Virus record (IMG/VR): IMGVR_UViG_2681813320_000008
Location: 1 to 5,907 of that record
Reading direction: 5' to 3' (one strand)
Origin: a virus
Lineage: Duplodnaviria > Heunggongvirae > Uroviricota > Caudoviricetes
DNA length: 5,907 bases
Shown here: one piece after another, positions 1 to 5,907 of the stretch
How positions within the stretch are numbered: the first letter of the stretch is position 1
How the letters are laid out: every line of letters begins with the position of its first letter
Position numbers and translations under genes: made by a program
The notes under the pieces: generated by a model
Told to the model about the DNA's origin: nothing
What the model saw: only the letters and a program-made list of their open reading frames with translations
Databases searched by the model: none

Positions 1-111
1 GTGCTTTTGCCGTTACGCACCACCCCGTCAGTAGCTGAACAGGAGGGACAGCTGATAGAAACAGAAGCCACTGGAGCACCTCAAAAACACCATCATACAC
101 TAAATCAGTAA
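1..111 (+). CDS. 3-prime end of an upstream ORF running off the window edge; function unknown (possibly the hydrophilic C-terminal tail of a holin or late-region protein)
   Basis: Frame 1 is open from base 1 to TAA at 109-111 (VLLPLRTTPSVAEQEGQLIETEATGAPQKHHHTLNQ). Only 36 codons are visible, which has a substantial chance of being open at random. No family motif recognised. Confidence 0.2.
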   Translation: MLLPLRTTPSVAEQEGQLIETEATGAPQKHHHTLNQ

Positions 112-210
112 GTTGGCAGCATCACCGGCGACGGTAAGGGTATTCACGTCTTCCCGAAGCCTGGAAATGCTGTCGAGCAACTCCTGTAGAGAAATGGTGT
201 TATTGTCCAT
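100..210 (-). CDS. Hypothetical 36-aa protein (MDNNTISLQELLDSISRLREDVNTLTVAGDAANLLI), absent from the supplied ORF track
   Basis: ATG at 210-208 preceded by a Shine-Dalgarno-like TGAGGA with a 6-nt spacer (minus-strand reading of 225-211: TCATGAGGATTATTT); stop TAG at 102-100. Hydrophilic, helix-prone sequence. Short and unconfirmed; overlaps the partial + ORF convergently by 12 bp. Confidence 0.3.
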   Translation of the reverse strand: MDNNTISLQELLDSISRLREDVNTLTVAGDAANLLI

Positions 211-315
211 AAATAATCCTCATGATTGTATTGACCTGTTAGCAGCCTGAGGCAACAGGCTGGAACTGATAAACATATCCAGGGCTCAGAAACCGATAAA
301 TCCTGATAAATATCC

Positions 316-849
316 ATGAACGCAAAAATCAGATACGGCCTGTCGGCTGCCGTTCTGGCGCTGATTGCCGCTGGTGCGCCTGCGCCTGACATTCTCGACC
401 AGTTTCTGGATGAAAAGGAAGGCAATCACACCACGGCATACCGTGATGGTGCAGGTATCTGGACCATCTGCCGTGGTGCCATCATGGTGGATGGCAAACC
501 TGTCGTTCCGGGCATGAAGTTGTCGAAGGAAAAATGCGACCGGGTTAACGCCATTGAGCGTGATAAGGCGCTGGCATGGGTGGAGAAAAACATCAGAGTG
601 CCATTGAGTGAACCCCAGAAAGCGGGGATCGCGTCATTCTGTCCGTACAACATTGGCCCCGGTAAGTGTTTTCCGTCGACGTTTTATAAACGAATTAATG
701 CAGGTGATCGCAGGGGAGCGTGTGAGGCGATTCGCTGGTGGATTAAGGACGGTGGCAGGGACTGCCGTATTCGCTCAAATAACTGTTACGGTCAGGTATC
801 CCGTCGTGACCAGGAGAGCGCGCTGGCGTGCTGGGGAATCGACAGATAA
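316..849 (+). CDS. Phage endolysin, T4-lysozyme-like (GH24) with N-terminal signal-anchor-release (SAR) domain
   Basis: 177-aa ORF. N-terminus MNAKIRYGLSAAVLALIAAGAPAP has basic residues followed by a weakly hydrophobic Gly/Ala/Ser-rich segment, as in SAR endolysins. Catalytic triad spacing E-x8-D-x5-T (EGNHTTAYRDGAGIWT) matches T4 lysozyme E11/D20/T26. Overall pattern (GIWTICRG, KRINAGD, C-terminal CWG) resembles P21 R / P22 gp19-type lysozymes as recalled. No Shine-Dalgarno visible upstream of the ATG. Confidence 0.9.
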   Translation: MNAKIRYGLSAAVLALIAAGAPAPDILDQFLDEKEGNHTTAYRDGAGIWTICRGAIMVDGKPVVPGMKLSKEKCDRVNAIERDKALAWVEKNIRVPLSEPQKAGIASFCPYNIGPGKCFPSTFYKRINAGDRRGACEAIRWWIKDGGRDCRIRSNNCYGQVSRRDQESALACWGIDR

Positions 850-939
850 GCAGAATATTTTGCTAATAAATGACGTTGGCCAAGGCGGACGGATAACACG
901 AAATCCTGCGAACTGGCAAAATGTAAGTGAATAAAAGTA

Positions 940-977
940 AAAACCCCGTTTGTTGGCAGCAAGCGGGGTTTTGTTTT
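940..977 (+). terminator. Rho-independent terminator-like stem-loop, potentially bidirectional
   Basis: AAAACCCCG (940-948) pairs with CGGGGTTTT (964-972), extendable by inner T.G/T-A/T-A pairs to about 12 bp with a 9-nt loop; followed by a T-run (TTTTGTTTTT through 978) and preceded by an A-run, so the reverse strand gives the same structure. Lies about 90 bp downstream of the endolysin stop. Confidence 0.55.
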
Positions 978-1043
978 TATGGCAGTAAGCTATGGGAGGC
1001 TGCCTTGATTGATTTTAGCAAACTGATTAGGGAGTTGCGACTC

Positions 1044-1139
1044 ATGATTAGTCAATTACCAAACTGGAAATTTTTGCTGGTCTGGAGCATCCCTTTTTTA
1101 TGGGTAGTATCCCAGTTAATTGTGGCAATTAAGGGGTAG
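1044..1139 (+). CDS. Hypothetical 31-aa single-pass membrane peptide (MISQLPNWKFLLVWSIPFLWVVSQLIVAIKG)
   Basis: ATG at 1044 preceded by GGGAG (1030-1034, 9-nt spacer); Trp/Phe/Leu-rich hydrophobic core; stop TAG at 1137-1139 lies 2 nt before the next ORF start. The longer track ORF from 927 crosses the terminator hairpin and has no RBS, so only this C-terminal part is retained. Confidence 0.3.
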   Translation: MISQLPNWKFLLVWSIPFLWVVSQLIVAIKG

Positions 1140-1141
1140 CT

Positions 1142-1273
1142 ATGTCAGACAAACTCATAACGCCGGCAAAGGTCCTGTGTGTGATTGTCGGTATTTCATT
1201 TTCACTAATGCTGGTTGCTCTTTTTCTGTCCCTCGCCTGGGTGATGTTGTCTTCGTCGGGGCTGCTGGGGTGA
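1142..1273 (+). CDS. Hypothetical 43-aa single-pass membrane peptide (MSDKLITPAKVLCVIVGISFSLMLVALFLSLAWVMLSSSGLLG)
   Basis: ATG at 1142 preceded by a strong Shine-Dalgarno AAGGGG (1131-1136, 5-nt spacer); about 25-residue hydrophobic stretch; stop TGA at 1271-1273 overlaps the GTG start of the next ORF (GTGA). Not in the ORF track, probably due to a length cutoff. The overlapping track frame (1120-1392, TTG start) is Cys-rich and unprotein-like over this stretch. Confidence 0.5.
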   Translation: MSDKLITPAKVLCVIVGISFSLMLVALFLSLAWVMLSSSGLLG

Positions 1274-1392
1274 CAGTGACTGATGACATCAGCAGAGCGC
1301 TGGCTTTTGCTATTAAGTGGGTGGCTGTTGGTATTGCTGTGTCTCCGATGCTGTATGGGCTGGCAAAACTGGTCATTGCGCTGAAATCGTGA
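1270..1392 (+). CDS. Hypothetical 38-40-aa membrane peptide (...TDDISRALAFAIKWVAVGIAVSPMLYGLAKLVIALKS); paralog of the next ORF
   Basis: GTG start at 1270 overlapping the previous stop (GTGA), or alternatively GTG 1276 with GGGG 5 nt upstream; hydrophobic core; stop TGA 1390-1392. Clear similarity to the peptide at 1404-1490 (RALAFAIKWVAVGIAV versus [16 protein letters not shown]) supports this reading frame. Confidence 0.45.
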   Translation: MTVTDDISRALAFAIKWVAVGIAVSPMLYGLAKLVIALKS

Positions 1393-1403
1393 ACTTTAAA
1401 AAG

Positions 1404-1490
1404 ATGAGTGCTGAACTTATTCGGGCAATGGCATTTGCCATTCGTATTGTGGCCATTGCTGTTCTGGTCTGGGCAATCCGTTGGTGGTGA
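1404..1490 (+). CDS. Hypothetical 28-aa membrane peptide ([28 protein letters not shown]); paralog of the previous ORF
   Basis: ATG 1404; stop TGA 1488-1490 lies 1 nt before the Rz ATG at 1492. Hydrophobic helix with C-terminal RWW. No clear Shine-Dalgarno (AAAAAG upstream), so translation may rely on coupling. Confidence 0.35.
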
Positions 1491-1491
1491 T

Positions 1492-1959
1492 ATGAACCGT
1501 GTTCTGTGTGTGGTGATTATTGTCCTGCTGGTAGCCTGTGGTGTGCTTAGTCTGGGGCTGAATCATTACCGCGATAACGCCATCACCTACAAAGCGCAGC
1601 GCGATAAAAAAGTCAGTGAGCTGAAACTGGCGAACGCGACAATTACTGATATGCAGATACGCCAGCGTGATGTCGCTGAACTTGATGCCAGATACTCGAG
1701 GGAATTAGCCGATGCGAGAGCTGAAAATGAAACTCTGCGTGCTGATGTTGCCGCTGGTCGTAAGCGCCTGCGGATCAACGCCACCTGCTCCGGTACCGTG
1801 CGTGAAGCCACCGGCACCTCCGGCGTGGATAATGCAACCGGCCCCCGACTGGCAGACACCGCTGAACGGGATTATTTCATCCTCAGAGAACGGTTGATGA
1901 CAATGCAGAAGCAGCTGGAAGGGGCACAGGACTATATCCGCACTCAGTGCCTGAACTAA
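1492..1959 (+). CDS. Rz: i-spanin (inner-membrane spanin subunit), lambda Rz-like
   Basis: 155-aa product [39 protein letters not shown]... with N-terminal transmembrane domain and coiled-coil periplasmic region; near-colinear with lambda Rz as recalled ([34 protein letters not shown]). Start trimmed from the track's GTG 1408 to ATG 1492 by that alignment. Confidence 0.9.
1712..1897 (+). CDS. Rz1: o-spanin (outer-membrane lipoprotein spanin subunit), lambda Rz1-like, embedded in the +1 frame of Rz
   Basis: 61-aa ORF wholly inside Rz in another frame. Lipoprotein signal with lipobox LVVSAC, proline-rich mature region [32 protein letters not shown] closely matching lambda Rz1 as recalled ([32 protein letters not shown]). 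The start could instead be the internal ATG at 1727. Confidence 0.85.
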
Positions 1960-2256
1960 GTTTTGCTGATGCGCCGTATCGTCGCTGTATTCCCTCATTA
2001 ACAGAGACCGCAGCCCGACAGGGAGACTCCTCTGCGCGAGTGTGCGGGGATAATCAAAAACGATACACACCGGGGTTTACCGCGTTAACGGAGCGCGGCG
2101 TTGTCCCCTCATAGTCGCCAGTCCGGTGCGATGGTGGAAGAAACAGGACGATGTGTTACCTCGCAAGCCCTGTTATGTCATGTGTCTGATTTGTGATTTA
2201 AGTCGGATAATTGTCGTTGCCATTAAGCAGAGGATTGATGACCGACAGGGCGGCAT

Positions 2257-2279
2257 TGTTAGAATAAGACTTATTCTAA
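2257..2279 (+). promoter_or_regulatory. Candidate extended -10 promoter (TGTTAGAAT, 2257-2265) overlapped by a 21-bp perfect palindrome (TTAGAATAAG-A-CTTATTCTAA, 2259-2279), a putative operator for the downstream lipoprotein gene
   Basis: Perfect 10-bp arms with a 1-nt spacer, directly seen; TGnTAGAAT matches the extended -10 consensus TGnTATAAT at 8 of 9 positions; located 19-40 bp upstream of the lipoprotein ATG at 2298, with a possible -35 TTGATG at 2235-2240. Confidence 0.35.
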
Positions 2280-2297
2280 TCTGTGCGGGGAATGAAA

Positions 2298-2624
2298 ATG
2301 AAAAGAAATCTTCCGTTAATTATTTTGTTGTCTTCTCTGGTTATGGGCTGTACGCAACATAAAACAGATATGCCCCGACAGTTGGTTAAGGCATTACCAC
2401 AATATCCGGCCTATGCAGCGGCAAATTATATAAAGGGACGGGTTGATGTGAGGTTTGATATTGGTGCTGATGGTACTGTCACCCGAATTGAGTTTATTCG
2501 TTCAGAGCCGCACCATCTGTTTGATGAGCAGGTTGTAAAGGCGATGGCAAAATGGCGATTTGAGAAGGACAGGCCGTGTAAAGGCGTGAAGAAAACGTTT
2601 ATCTTTAGTCCTTCTGCGCACTGA
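2298..2624 (+). CDS. Lipoprotein with TonB C-terminal-like domain (phage moron candidate)
   Basis: 108-aa product MKRNLPLIILLSSLVMGC... with basic n-region, hydrophobic core and lipobox-like LVMGC. Mature part carries the TonB C-terminal pattern PQYPAYAAANYIKGRVDVRFDIGADGTVTRIEFIRSEPHHLFDEQVVKAMAKWRFEKD...KKTFIF (YP..A...G.V.V.F.I..DG.V......S...LFD..V..A...W.F). It lacks the proline-rich spacer and N-terminal membrane anchor of true TonB. Start chosen at ATG 2298 (GGGG 7 nt upstream) rather than the track's GTG 2283. Confidence 0.75.
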   Translation: MKRNLPLIILLSSLVMGCTQHKTDMPRQLVKALPQYPAYAAANYIKGRVDVRFDIGADGTVTRIEFIRSEPHHLFDEQVVKAMAKWRFEKDRPCKGVKKTFIFSPSAH

Positions 2625-2755
2625 TTATTTCATCAGAAATTAATTATCACTCTGTTGTTATTCTGTACATCCCGGCAGGGTAAGTATTGTTCCGTCGGAT
2701 ATGAAGATGAAATATTGTTGGAGGACAGTGGGTACCTGCTCCTGTAACCGAACGT

Positions 2756-2956
2756 TCATTTCTCGTTATTTGTCATGCTGGCCGGGCGCAGATGCGTTGC
2801 ATCTGTTGCCAGCCTTCTCCTGCAGGCTTCAATAACCCACGCTGAAAAGTTACCGGACCCTTTATGCTCAAGGGCGATGTTGATCTGTTCAATCATGTGA
2901 TTGGGGAAACGGATATTGCGGGTTGTGGTTCTGCGGGTACGGTTTTTCGATGACAT
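2756..2956 (-). CDS. Small ribbon-helix-helix DNA-binding protein, YlcI/YnfO-like (DUF3950 family) as recalled from E. coli cryptic prophages
   Basis: 66-aa product MSSKNRTRRTTTRNIRFPNHMIEQINIALEHKGSGNFSAWVIEACRRRLATDATHLRPASMTNNEK: basic N-terminus, a beta-strand-like NIRFP followed by two helices (an Arc/CopG-like arrangement). Start set at ATG 2956 with a strong RBS (AAGGA, 7-nt spacer) instead of the track's upstream ATG 3016, which would overlap the HNH gene start. Confidence 0.65.
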   Translation of the reverse strand: MSSKNRTRRTTTRNIRFPNHMIEQINIALEHKGSGNFSAWVIEACRRRLATDATHLRPASMTNNEK

Positions 2957-2997
2957 ATTTATTTCCTTTACTGATTGCCATATGACGGGGATTTTAC

Positions 2998-3363
2998 ATG
3001 GCTGAGCTTCGTACACTCCAGAGCAGAATCAAAACACTGAATACCCGACGGGTGAATATTCTGAAGGGTGAACAGCGTCGTGTCAGTGGCAGTGCACGTG
3101 TTTCCCTCAAGCGTCATATCTGGCTCAGGGATGCCGGGCAGTGCTGTCTCTGTGGTCGTGTGGTTGACCTCTGTGACAGTGAACTCGATCACCGAATTGC
3201 ACTTCAGTTCGGTGGTGGTAATGAGGAGACGAATCTCTGGACGCTCTGTACCGAATGCCATCGACAAAAGTCTGCTCGTGAAGCGGCGAGTGATATGCCG
3301 GACCCGACGCTGCCGGAGGTGTCCGGAGGTAGTGGCAGAGAGGACGACATCATCGGACTGTAA
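2998..3363 (+). CDS. HNH endonuclease, phage packaging-associated
   Basis: 121-aa product with two CxxC pairs (CCLCG, CTEC) and the HNH core DHRIALQFGGGNEETNLWTLCTECH; sits immediately upstream of the putative cos region and terminase genes, the arrangement known for HK97-type cos phages (gp74). RBS ACGGGGA 7 nt upstream of the ATG. Confidence 0.85.
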   Translation: MAELRTLQSRIKTLNTRRVNILKGEQRRVSGSARVSLKRHIWLRDAGQCCLCGRVVDLCDSELDHRIALQFGGGNEETNLWTLCTECHRQKSAREAASDMPDPTLPEVSGGSGREDDIIGL

Positions 3364-3653
3364 CCCGACCCCGGGGGGGTATCATCCGGCGTAAAAAACG
3401 ATCGCTTTGGACACCGCGCCCCCTCTCACGCAGAGAAAAAATTCCCGTTTCAGGGCAGTTAACATGTTAACTGGCTGCCCGGGCATTTTTGCGGTTTTTA
3501 TCTTTATTATTCAGTTTGTTGTGCGGAAAAAATGTTAACAGGCTTTTTCAGCAAATGTTAACCAGGCAGCAGTTAACATTTGCGGCATGAGACGCCGGGA
3601 AAAATGGGCTGAACCATACCCGGCTGAGTGCGTTCTGGACCCGGGAGGAGGCT
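3364..3653. other. Putative cos / packaging-initiation region (non-coding, between HNH endonuclease and terminase small subunit)
   Basis: 290-bp non-coding gap in the position where cos lies in HK97-like and lambda-like genomes; contains a CCCCGGGGGGG tract (3369-3379), A/T-tract-rich, probably bent DNA (3485-3530) and clustered GTTAAC-containing repeats. The exact cosN nick sites cannot be assigned from sequence alone. Confidence 0.4.
3456..3581. repeat. Cluster of five GTTAACAT/ATGTTAAC motifs: an 18-bp perfect palindrome (3456-3473), a solitary copy (3532-3539) and an inverted repeat with 10-bp arms and a 9-bp spacer (3553-3581)
   Basis: Directly seen: CAGTTAACATGTTAACTG (3456-3473) is self-complementary; AAATGTTAAC (3553-3562) and GTTAACATTT (3572-3581) are reverse complements; ATGTTAAC also occurs at 3532-3539. 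Five copies of an 8-mer in 126 bp is far above chance. Function (terminase small-subunit sites, or operator for the RHH protein) is inferred. Confidence 0.6.
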
Positions 3654-4217
3654 GTGCTGACAACGCAAAAACGAAAATTTGCGCTGGCGCTCATGTCCGG
3701 GAAAAACAAAACAGCGTCAGCCATTGCCGCCGGTTATTCGGCGAAGACCGCCAGGGTTAAAGGCTCGCAGCTGGCAAAAGATCCTGAGGTGCTTGCGTTT
3801 ATAGCCCGTAAACAATGCGAGACGGTGGAGGTGGATGAGGTTCCTGTTTACCGGCAGAAAAAATCAGAGCAGGAGGATAAACCCCGTCGCCGTGAGGCGG
3901 CTGCAATACCACAGCCGGACGAAAACAATCCGGAGATGCCACCGTCCGCGGTGATGTCTCCTGGTATTGAATATATGGAGGATGGTCTTCCCGATCCGGT
4001 GAAAGCCATGGGGCGGATCCTGGTGGAAAACCTCTGCATTGATCCGAAACTGGCACTGGATGCGGCCTGGCGTCTGGCGCAGTTCACGCACCATAAAAAA
4101 GGGGATACCGGGAAAAAATCGGCAAAAGGTGATGCCGCGAAAAAAGCGGCTAACCGTTTTGCGGTGCCACCGCCCCCCCGACTGGTGGTGAATAACGATA
4201 ATGAGGGCAACGGATGA
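3654..4217 (+). CDS. terS: Terminase small subunit (Terminase_2-like, N-terminal helix-turn-helix)
   Basis: 187-aa product; N-terminal KRKFALALMSGKNKTASAIAAGYSAKTARVKGSQLAKDPEV fits the TerS HTH pattern (AGYS.KTA); charged low-complexity C-terminus; stop overlaps the terminase large subunit start (ATGA at 4214-4217). GTG start at 3654 with GGAGG 5 nt upstream. Confidence 0.8.
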   Translation: MLTTQKRKFALALMSGKNKTASAIAAGYSAKTARVKGSQLAKDPEVLAFIARKQCETVEVDEVPVYRQKKSEQEDKPRRREAAAIPQPDENNPEMPPSAVMSPGIEYMEDGLPDPVKAMGRILVENLCIDPKLALDAAWRLAQFTHHKKGDTGKKSAKGDAAKKAANRFAVPPPPRLVVNNDNEGNG

Positions 4218-5875
4218 TACCTGTATGGAGCACAGCCTGCCCGGACTGGGCAGAGCGCCTGAAAAAGGGGCTGTCGATTATTCCGGATCCGATTTATCCG
4301 GACGAGGCCGCACATGCCCTGGCGATTTTTAAACAACTGCGGATTGTGGATGCACCTGGTAGCCCTACGTTCGGGGAGTCCTGTGCACCGTGGGTGTTTG
4401 ACCTGGTGGCGGCCCTGTTTGGCTCCTACGATGCGCAGACCGGTGTACGCCATATCAAGGAAGTTTTTATCCTTATCCCCAAGAAAAACTCGAAGTCCAC
4501 GCTGGCCGCGGGGATCATGATGACTGCACTGTTACTGAACTGGCGGCAGGCGGCGGGTTACACGATTCTGGCCCCGACTGTGGAGGTGGCGGCCAACGCC
4601 TTCAACCCTGCCCGGGATATGGTACGACGTGACGATGATCTGGATGACCTCTGCCAGGTACAGACCCATATCCGGACCATCACCCACCGAGTGACGGACA
4701 CCACCCTGAAGGTGGTGGCAGCCGATCCGAATACGGTGTCCGGTATCAAGTCCGTGGGTACGCTGATTGATGAGTTGTGGCTGTTTGGCAAGCAGTGCAA
4801 GGCGGAGGACATGTTACGTGAAGCCATAGGCGGCCTTGCCTCCCGCCCGGAAGGGTTTGTGGTGTATACGACCACCCAGTCGAATGAACCGCCCGCCGGG
4901 GTGTTCAGACAGAAACTGCAGTACGCCCGGGATGTGCGCGACGGCAAAATTCATGATCCGCACTTTCTGCCGGTGATATTTGAACACCCTCCTGAAATGG
5001 TGGAAAGCGGGGCTAACCTGCTGATGGAAAACCTCGCCATGGTCAATCCGAATCTCGGCTATTCAGTGGATGAGGCCTTTCTGTACCGGGAGTACCGTAA
5101 AGCCCGGGAAGCCGGTGAAGAGACATTCCGGGGGTTCATGTCAAAACACGCCAATGTGGAAATTGGTCTTGCCCTGCGCTCTGACCGCTGGGCGGGGGCT
5201 GATTTCTGGGAAGAGCAGGGCCGTTGTATCAGCCTGGACGATATCCTGCGTCGTGCTGATGTGGTGACGGTGGGGATTGACGGCGGAGGGCTGGATGATC
5301 TGCTGGGGATGTATGTGACTGGGCGTGACCGGGAGACCCGCGAATGGCTGGGCTGGGGCCATGCCTGGGCGCATGAAACCGCGGTGGTCCGACGGAAGAG
5401 CGAGGCGTCCCGGTTTCAGGATCTTGTTGCCTGTGGAGATATGACCATTGTCCGGCGTGTCGGGGATGACACGGCGGAAGTGGCGGAATATGTGCGTCGC
5501 ATTCATGAGGCTGAGTTACTGGACCATATCGGTATTGACCCGTCAGGGGTGGGGCAGATTCTGGATTCACTGGCGGAAGCCGGGATCCCCGACGGAATTG
5601 TGGTGGGGATAAGCCAGGGCTGGAAACTGGGCGGGGCCATTAAAACCACCGAGCGCAAACTGGCTGAAGGGGTGCTGGTGCATGGTGACCAGCCCCTGAT
5701 GGCCTGGTGTGTCGGCAATGCCCGGGTGGAGCCTAAAGGTAACGCCATTCTTATCACCAAACAGGCCAGTGGACGGGGAAAAATTGACCCGCTGATGGCG
5801 CTGTTCAATGCGGTCTCCCTGATGTCCCTTAACCCGGAACCGAAAAAGAAAGAATATGCGGTTTTTTTCATATAA
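4214..5875 (+). CDS. terL: Terminase large subunit (Terminase_1 / HK97-like ATPase-nuclease)
   Basis: 553-aa product; Walker A-like ILIPKKNSKST; Walker B-like hydrophobic stretch ending LIDE; C-terminal nuclease-domain pattern (VTVGIDGGGLDDL ... KIDPLMALFNAVSLMS) typical of the family; translationally coupled to terS. Confidence 0.92.
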   Translation: MIPVWSTACPDWAERLKKGLSIIPDPIYPDEAAHALAIFKQLRIVDAPGSPTFGESCAPWVFDLVAALFGSYDAQTGVRHIKEVFILIPKKNSKSTLAAGIMMTALLLNWRQAAGYTILAPTVEVAANAFNPARDMVRRDDDLDDLCQVQTHIRTITHRVTDTTLKVVAADPNTVSGIKSVGTLIDELWLFGKQCKAEDMLREAIGGLASRPEGFVVYTTTQSNEPPAGVFRQKLQYARDVRDGKIHDPHFLPVIFEHPPEMVESGANLLMENLAMVNPNLGYSVDEAFLYREYRKAREAGEETFRGFMSKHANVEIGLALRSDRWAGADFWEEQGRCISLDDILRRADVVTVGIDGGGLDDLLGMYVTGRDRETREWLGWGHAWAHETAVVRRKSEASRFQDLVACGDMTIVRRVGDDTAEVAEYVRRIHEAELLDHIGIDPSGVGQILDSLAEAGIPDGIVVGISQGWKLGGAIKTTERKLAEGVLVHGDQPLMAWCVGNARVEPKGNAILITKQASGRGKIDPLMALFNAVSLMSLNPEPKKKEYAVFFI

Positions 5876-5907
5876 CCCTGTTCACACTGTAACCATCACG
5901 AACCGCT

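Follow-up and report, generated by a model that had tools for sequence, protein, structure and literature searches.

Among the closest described counterparts of the gene analysed here are small phage lipoproteins of the inner leaflet of the outer membrane, Llp of T5 and Cor of phi80, N15, HK022 and T1, which act on the periplasmic face of a TonB-dependent transporter. They are FhuA-specific, allosteric and tied to phages that use FhuA. Llp binds to the periplasmic side of FhuA, where it remodels the plug and moves EL7 and EL8, and TonB and Llp compete for an overlapping FhuA surface. A second comparison is offered by engineered periplasmic fragments of TonB, soluble and overexpressed laboratory constructs that hold the C-terminus of TonB without its energy-coupling part. 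The gene in question lies in a 5,907-nucleotide stretch of viral DNA (Caudoviricetes; IMG/VR record IMGVR_UViG_2681813320_000008, positions 1 to 5,907), referred to below as the window, and encodes a 108-amino-acid protein in which a predicted lipoprotein signal is followed by a TonB C-terminal domain. It likewise has the TonB C-terminus without the energy-coupling part, but unlike the engineered fragments it is natural, predicted to be lipid-anchored and diverged from host TonB. From Llp and Cor it differs in that their fold is unrelated to its own, and in that it would be generic for TonB boxes and has no link to tail type.

C-terminal fragments of TonB of at least 86 residues reportedly bind FhuA, block ferrichrome uptake and protect against phi80. 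In the solved complexes, TonB is monomeric and its β3 strand pairs in parallel with the transporter's TonB box. In free TonB, strand β4 (residues 235-239) either pairs with β3 or serves as the dimer contact; in the complexes it is disordered. As described in papers that cite it, the study of Howard et al. 2001 found that periplasmic TonB 33-239, 103-239 and 122-239 inhibit TonB system activity, and that ompT(ss)-TonB(33-239) abolishes ferrichrome transport. The explanation that we rank first, at a probability of roughly 45%, is that the gene in the window encodes a natural dominant-negative mimic of TonB.

The gene and its product

The gene is real and under strong purifying selection. In the open reading frame (ORF) list and its translation it extends from an ATG at 2298 to a TGA at 2622-2624 and encodes 108 amino acids, and RefSeq places a ‘TonB family protein’ at the identical coordinates, 2298-2624. 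The ATG at 2298 appears to be the best start, because a Shine-Dalgarno-like run lies upstream of it and because the phage 21 homologue has the same annotated start and the same spacing of the ribosome-binding site (RBS), with an AGGA at the equivalent spacing annotated as the RBS. Compared with the phage 21 allele, which is 72% identical, the ratio of non-synonymous to synonymous substitution (dN/dS) is 0.115, at a dS of about 1.7, where synonymous sites are saturated. All 80 copies fetched from viral contigs are intact at 108 amino acids, the related loci that were fetched being mostly near-identical viral copies. The GC content of the gene is 43.7%, and 41% at third codon positions (GC3), as against 54–58% and 53–66%, respectively, in the neighbouring genes, a difference of the kind that usually marks a moron.

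The N-terminus has the form of a lipoprotein signal. Residues 1-18 (MKRNLPLIILLSSLVMGC) agree with a PROSITE-type lipobox rule (IILLSSLVMG/CT), the lipobox [LVI][ASTVI][GAS]C following a hydrophobic h-region of mean hydropathy 2.6. The Cys of the lipobox is present in every full-length homologue down to 33% identity, and none of them has Asp at position +2. In the window protein the +2 residue is Thr and not Asp, so that sorting to the outer membrane would be expected; we infer export and lipidation, as well as this sorting, from the same sequence features.

The remainder of the protein is a TonB C-terminal domain by both profile and structure comparison. Pfam TonB_C (PF03544) matches at 8.6e-15 with 55.4 bits (cut-off 24.6) and TIGR01352 at 6.9e-15 with 55.2 bits (cut-off 27.1). 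In phmmer searches against the TonB C-terminal domains of the PDB (1e-15 to 6e-15), residues 26-104 align without gaps to TonB 153-231, and over this range 30 of the 79 residues (38%) are identical to those of Escherichia coli TonB. An AlphaFold2 model built on a 24-sequence alignment has a mean predicted local distance difference test score (pLDDT) of 85.8, rising above 96 over residues 30-100; an earlier model from a shallow 15-sequence alignment (pLDDT 60.6) was excluded from the fold comparison. Foldseek matched the model to TonB C-terminal domains with a probability of 1.00, a root-mean-square deviation (rmsd) of 1.0–1.4 Å and target TM-scores of 0.88–0.92. Among these are 2GSK_B from the BtuB:TonB complex (1.0 Å, 0.92), 2GRX_C from the FhuA:TonB complex (1.1 Å, 0.92) and 1U07 (1.2 Å), and TolA domain III was a distant match only. 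As modelled, the domain cannot be told apart in structure from TonB bound to a receptor.

The window protein thus shares with the E. coli TonB C-terminus (∼150-239; 1U07, 2GSK, 2GRX) its Pfam family, fold, YP motif and β3. In the model and the residue mapping, β3 is retained as residues 94-103, with F103 equivalent to TonB F230, and P161, Y163, P164, G174, G186, F202, W213 and F230 are conserved both in the clade of the window protein and in canonical TonB. The protein differs from E. coli TonB in that R166, L170, N200, R204 and K207 are replaced, and in that its C-terminus is equivalent to TonB 235, so that β4 is absent. The N-terminal parts of TonB are also missing: neither TonB_N (PF16031, the proline-rich spacer) nor a transmembrane anchor is present in the 108 residues, whereas the genuine TonBs in the same search have both PF16031 and PF03544. 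The membrane anchor that couples TonB to ExbB/ExbD is replaced by the predicted cleavable lipoprotein signal, as an N-terminal lipid tether. The TonB equivalog models (NCBIfam PRK10819) score 49–74 bits against cut-offs of 265–448, and the protein is not a TonB orthologue.

A preliminary description, made from the sequence, had read the gene as encoding a lipoprotein with a TonB C-terminal domain but without the anchor and proline-rich spacer, and hence unable to couple to ExbB/ExbD. The conserved lipobox Cys, the profile matches, the superposition on 2GSK_B and 2GRX_C and the lack of a PF16031 match bear this out on each count.

Relatives, prevalence and current annotation

An exhaustive HMMER search gave 4,729 relatives with TonB_C, 170 of them at E ≤ 1e-10. 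The best relatives include single-domain proteins of ∼110 amino acids, most with a lipobox of their own, and the clade has the motif SEPxHLFD...KWRFE, unlike the AxPANMFERE...WRYE of canonical TonB. Copies in prophages always lie on the late strand between the spanin and the small terminase, despite unrelated flanking modules. Other relatives are found on a plasmid and on chromosomal islets (Table 1), so that the family is not exclusive to phages: it is a family of mobile accessory lipoproteins, encoded by prophages and by other mobile DNA. One relative sits directly upstream of a Tle1-like gene, a slot typical of an immunity protein.

At a query coverage of at least 80%, the window-type allele is found in 414 of 5,426 complete E. 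coli genomes; the phage-21-type allele is found in 1,221 of the same genomes, including the type strain ATCC 11775. The two sets may overlap, and together they amount to more than 1,600 genome instances. The phage carriers are JLK-2012, Lys8385Vzw, four Stx1a-converting phages, phage 21, ev017, Perceval and the PhiR phages. In one alignment, five phage-21-type sequences (P0013, P0016, P0018, P0019 and P0020) have an alternative C-terminus (…SGSEETIYLYAVTSLMLP…) after residue ∼90. This looks like a frameshift that replaces β3, and some phage-21-type copies may be inactivated or altered by it.

The assignment of the TonB domain is already in the databases and hence is not new: existing labels are ‘TonB family protein’, ‘TonB C-terminal domain protein’, ‘TonB fragment’ and ‘partial tonB-like membrane protein encoded within prophage CP-933N’. 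Superinfection exclusion was reviewed in 2024; that review covers Cor and FhuA, and has nothing of the TonB-domain lipoprotein type.

A candidate dominant-negative mimic of TonB

The mechanism that we propose runs as follows. The protein would be exported and lipid-modified at Cys18, and the conserved lipobox without Asp at +2 would place the domain where TonB boxes emerge, so that a free TonB C-terminal domain would be presented right beside the TonB-dependent transporters. Because the membrane anchor and the spacer are missing, it could not transmit energy from ExbB/ExbD. Since the protein ends before β4, the edge of β3 should be left open, and this edge would occupy the TonB boxes of FhuA, BtuB, FepA and Cir, as well as those of colicins that bear a TonB box, in competition with the scarce TonB of the cell. 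The outcome would be a lysogen, or a late-infected cell, that is partly tolerant to TonB-dependent phages (T1/phi80 type), group B colicins and microcins, at the price of some loss of TonB-dependent nutrient uptake.

In this scheme the binding of TonB boxes, the inhibitory effect and the benefit to the carrier are what we infer for the window protein, by analogy with the complexes and constructs described above. The decoy reading is plausible and is strengthened by indirect comparative support, including the recurrence on mobile DNA of lipoproteins with a transducer C-terminal domain, described below. The low GC content, the purifying selection, the prevalence, the constant slot and one relative adjacent to Qat are the behaviour of an accessory gene.

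Several points weigh on the other side. In E. coli TonB, Q160 has been implicated genetically in recognition of the TonB box and R166 makes a salt bridge to FhuA; the equivalent residues of the window protein are Leu and Tyr, and neither position is conserved in the clade. The tether between the predicted lipidated Cys and the first residue of the domain is only seven residues long. Transporters greatly outnumber TonB, and they may also outnumber a weakly expressed decoy, whilst a general block of TonB would cost the lysogen iron and vitamin B12 uptake. The gene points the same way as the late operon, and a scan for intrinsic terminators found no terminator-like site between Rz and the gene, so that late lytic transcription would be expected. 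The protein may then be made mainly in lytic growth, where tolerance would matter less. Several relatives stand in chromosomal contexts without a defence or phage signature, and a PADLOC search gave no defence-system match apart from a single spurious one (0.039). Finally, a full-text literature search found no functional study of the gene, and no data on binding, localisation, expression or phenotype.

With respect to nutrient uptake, the b region of phage 21 (L098:12968-15001; record 21967-24502) contains sitB, sitC and sitD, which belong to a TonB-independent iron/manganese ABC importer. These genes may compensate for reduced TonB-dependent uptake, or their presence may be a coincidence.

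Alternative explanations

The first alternative is that the protein blocks one receptor in the manner of Llp and Cor, docking on a single transporter such as FhuA, shifting its surface loops and stopping adsorption. The window protein is of the size class of Llp and has the same predicted location, but we regard this explanation as unlikely. The fold is that of the TonB C-terminal domain and not that of Llp or Cor, and a search of the viral structures in BFVD gave no match at E ≤ 0.001, whereas Llp is reported to match many BFVD proteins. The gene also moves independently of tail modules, and both the TonB box and its pairing with β3 are generic across transporters. In phage 21 itself, J is lambda-like and no cor is annotated, which makes it unlikely that this phage uses its homologue to exclude its own kind at FhuA.

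A poison of the Ton machine would act at the other end of the system, by forming a heterodimer with the C-terminus of host TonB or by binding the periplasmic domain of ExbD. TonB C-terminal fragments do dimerise in crystals and in solution, and it has been suggested in print that periplasmic TonB fragments possibly act through the TonB-ExbD interaction. We nevertheless consider such a poison improbable: the window protein is without β4, the strand that mediates the dimer in the 1U07-type crystal, it is only 38% identical to host TonB, and, tied by a short tether to the outer membrane, it would be kept at a distance from ExbD in the inner membrane.

There is similarly only a small chance that the protein is an accessory of lysis or of the envelope, that is, an outer-membrane lipoprotein that binds peptidoglycan or helps the spanins. 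An interaction of TonB with peptidoglycan has been suggested in the literature, and the constant position of the prophage copies, after the spanin genes and on the late strand, would suit such a role. PHROGs, moreover, gives a full-length match to phrog_1267, whose label is ‘Rz-like spanin’. That label is most simply explained by position. It is probably a mis-annotation, since the true Rz1 lies elsewhere, within Rz, and it is set to propagate to new phage genomes. The phage already has a complete Rz with its embedded Rz1, the ORF matches TonB_C and not Rz1, its composition is unlike that of the lysis genes, and close relatives on the plasmid and the chromosomal islets have no lysis genes nearby.

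That the gene is a functionless, decaying fragment of a captured tonB, as the older labels ‘partial tonB-like’ and ‘TonB fragment’ and the frameshifted C-termini of some phage-21-type copies might suggest, is very improbable, being contradicted by the dN/dS of 0.115, by a dedicated lipoprotein signal that tonB lacks, by the intact viral copies and the number of genome instances, and by the conservation of the clade across genera down to 33% identity.

A second lineage and its TolA counterparts

A group of four other lipoproteins (P0155, P0179, P0180 and P0181) stands beside genuine enterobacterial TonB in a crude neighbour-joining tree. Their TonB C-terminal sequence is near-canonical and their linker is ∼50 residues long, and this C-terminus and the tree position together suggest an independent fusion of a lipobox to TonB. 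They are set in a mobile island (HNH_2, a weak Aca2-like match, and IS4 in one copy). At two loci a TonB-domain lipoprotein of 150 amino acids is followed by a secreted protein of 143 amino acids and then by a TolA-domain lipoprotein of 118 amino acids (MLAG/C). Apart from its signal, the last of these consists of a TolA C-terminal domain (Pfam 7.1e-20; PDB 1S62, 1.5e-18), with ∼50% identity to domain III of E. coli TolA. A tblastn search of plasmids with the second-lineage protein returned genuine full-length tonB only.

The same design of lipobox, linker and transducer C-terminal domain on mobile DNA is seen in the TolA-domain lipoproteins of prophages (phrog_5772; the ‘TolA protein’ of mEp460_ev081), which differ from the window protein in carrying TolA domain III and in occupying the slot between Q and the lysis genes, which is part of the late moron region. 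In the lambdoid phage mEp460_ev081 (L102:4842-5270) this lipoprotein has 142 amino acids (IIIG/C), and the prophage type as a whole is found in 883 of the 5,426 E. coli genomes. In E. coli ECCHD184 (L103:4501-5475), PGAP calls the TolA-domain gene tolA and marks it as a pseudogene ‘missing N-terminus’. Directly downstream of the prophage TolA-domain lipoprotein gene there is a second gene with a TolA C-terminal domain.

The C-termini of TonB and TolA are both exploited as import hubs by colicins and phages. On mobile DNA a lipobox has been joined to the C-terminal domain of a transducer in three independent cases, which argues for selection of the architecture as such. We advance only tentatively the wider idea that mobile elements of the Enterobacterales may have repeatedly built outer-membrane-tethered tips of TonB and TolA, ‘import-hub decoys’ that would be a class not recognised before and would let lysogens tolerate phages that depend on TonB or Tol, as well as colicins of groups B and A. 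By the counts given above for the two TonB-type alleles and the TolA type, candidates for this class occur in a large share of E. coli strains.

Genomic setting and regulation

Family scans and the RefSeq annotation identify the window as late-region DNA from a lambdoid prophage of E. coli. Its features, together with related loci, are collected in Table 1.

Table 1. Positions of features in the window (counted from its first letter) and settings of related loci
Feature	Position	Strand	Basis or setting
SAR-type phage lysozyme (endolysin)	316-849		
Small hydrophobic ORFs, ∼640 bp insert	927-1490		Between endolysin and Rz
Rz	1492-1959		Pfam 7.5e-50
Rz1, embedded in Rz	1712-1897		Pfam 1.7e-21
Candidate extended -10, TGtTAGAAT	2257-2265	+	Consensus scan; within island conserved with phage 21
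Perfect 10+1+10 palindrome, proposed operator	2259-2279		Overlaps candidate -10
Shine-Dalgarno-like GGGG(A)	2287-2290	+	7 nt before ATG 2298; sequence read
Predicted signal peptide (residues 1-17) and lipobox Cys18 (codon 2349-2351)	2298-2351	+	Lipobox pattern, hydropathy
108-residue predicted lipoprotein with TonB C-terminal domain, stop included	2298-2624	+	ORF list, RefSeq, dN/dS, GC
TonB C-terminal domain, residues 26-104 (E. coli TonB 153-231), α1-β1-β2-α2-β3	2373-2609	+	
YlcI/YnfO (DUF3950), convergent	2756-2956	-	Family scans
HNH endonuclease	2998-3363		
TerS	3654-4217		
TerL	4214-5875		
Phage 21 homologue			Adjoins bor, which lies just upstream
Klebsiella phage homologue (41% identity)			
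P0034 (44% identity)			Between DUF2514 spanin and HNH/Terminase_4 module
Rahnella prophage homologue (∼35% identity)			Between holin_8/GH19/Rz cassette and lambda-type Nu1/GpA terminase
Raoultella chromosome relatives			Isolated accessory gene
Erwinia relative			Beside araBA
Insertion in bcs (cellulose synthesis) cluster	L096:6001-8034		Directly upstream of Tle1-like (type VI secretion system lipase) gene
Plasmid relative	L095:5348-11737		Between ParM/StbA partition genes and QatABCD defence system
TonB/TolA-domain lipoprotein island	L099:7001-8237; L100:3512-4748		

The TonB-domain gene comes after Rz/Rz1, 339 nt downstream of Rz, and before the genes for HNH, TerS and TerL. A copy that is 99.8% identical over window positions 2100-2760 is found in E. 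coli NCCP15648, where Q, tRNAs, iraM, a NanS-like esterase and a class II holin lie upstream. This order, with the low GC content, agrees with the moron slot between lysis and packaging genes to which the gene had initially been assigned. Of the two genes then named as occupants of that slot, bor fits: in lambda, the gene for the outer-membrane lipoprotein Bor/Iss likewise lies between Rz and the packaging region, and in phage 21 bor is next to the homologue itself. The comparison with cor does not stand, as cor lies after the tail genes. The window protein has no sequence or fold relation to Bor and no Pfam Bor match, and bor is on the opposite strand, whereas the TonB-domain gene is on the strand of the late operon.

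The gene had also been credited with a candidate promoter and operator of its own. A sigma-70-like site at 2238-2265 has 9 of 12 consensus matches plus the TG, and three such sites were found where 1.9 are expected by chance; its weak -35 (ATGACC, 2238-2243) is unconserved. The extended -10 falls in a 16-nt island, ATTGTyAGAATAAGAC, which matches phage 21 at 15 of the 16 positions in diverged surroundings. For the candidate dedicated promoter, which would serve expression in the lysogen, the site as a whole is weak and at chance count, and the conserved island lends modest support. The operator fared worse. The palindrome TTAGAATAAG-a-CTTATTCTAA is real in the window, with 0.01 expected in shuffles, but of the 97 loci fetched only 2 have it in perfect form, and phage 21 lacks the right arm, so that a conserved operator is unsupported. 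Fur control of the palindrome was rejected, the best agreement with the Fur consensus being 12/19, which 16% of shuffles equal.

A search of Rfam with positions 1900-3100 gave no match at E ≤ 1. Two small reading frames, the ORF at 2126-2362 (78 amino acids) and an upstream one beginning ‘MVEETG’, were treated as non-coding or unproven, because the length of neither frame is kept between the window and phage 21. The non-coding stretch at 1971-2165 is more conserved with phage 21 (L002:3691-3860) than is the gene itself (72%), and the two are identical over many long runs, one of them the 25-nt block GGTGCGATGGTGGAAGAAACAGGA.

Other features of the window were noted in passing. A hydrophobic segment at the N-terminus of the endolysin (MNAKIRYGLSAAVLALIAAGA…) resembles that of the signal-anchor-release (SAR) endolysin of phage 21, which agrees with the class II (pin)holin that the annotation of the full prophage places upstream. 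Within the insert that follows the endolysin are three or four hydrophobic ORFs, small and in part overlapping, in which an A(L/M)AFAI(K/R) plus transmembrane motif recurs. They match phrog_6632, 4906, 3246, 1115 and 4493, all function-unassigned, and Pfam and PADLOC searches with them gave no match. The insert is missing in phage 21 and JLK-2012, and is present at a coverage of at least 80% in 587 E. coli genomes. The YlcI/YnfO gene lies 131 nt 3' of the TonB-domain gene, and its sequence suggests a ribbon-helix-helix DNA binder; it accompanies the TonB-domain gene in the E. coli copies and is absent alongside the copies of other genera.

Implications

If the protein is a decoy, its function would plausibly be a variant of that of the exclusion lipoproteins of phages and mobile elements. 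It would add a third, mechanistically distinct route by which phages close receptor-mediated entry, after Llp/Cor and receptor modification. Roughly between a quarter and a third of the sequenced E. coli strains would then have, in a prophage, a gene for adjusting the TonB gateway, and the carriers include Stx1a-converting phages, the classical phage 21 and the E. coli type strain. The users of this gateway are siderophores and vitamin B12, many colicins and microcins, several phages, and antibiotics conjugated to siderophores, for example cefiderocol. A gene of this kind would therefore explain differences between strains in sensitivity to bacteriocins and phages, and would bear on the host range of phages in therapy and on the uptake of Trojan-horse antibiotics. 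For the TonB field it would be a natural experiment, an evolved, membrane-tethered inhibitor of the interaction with the TonB box.

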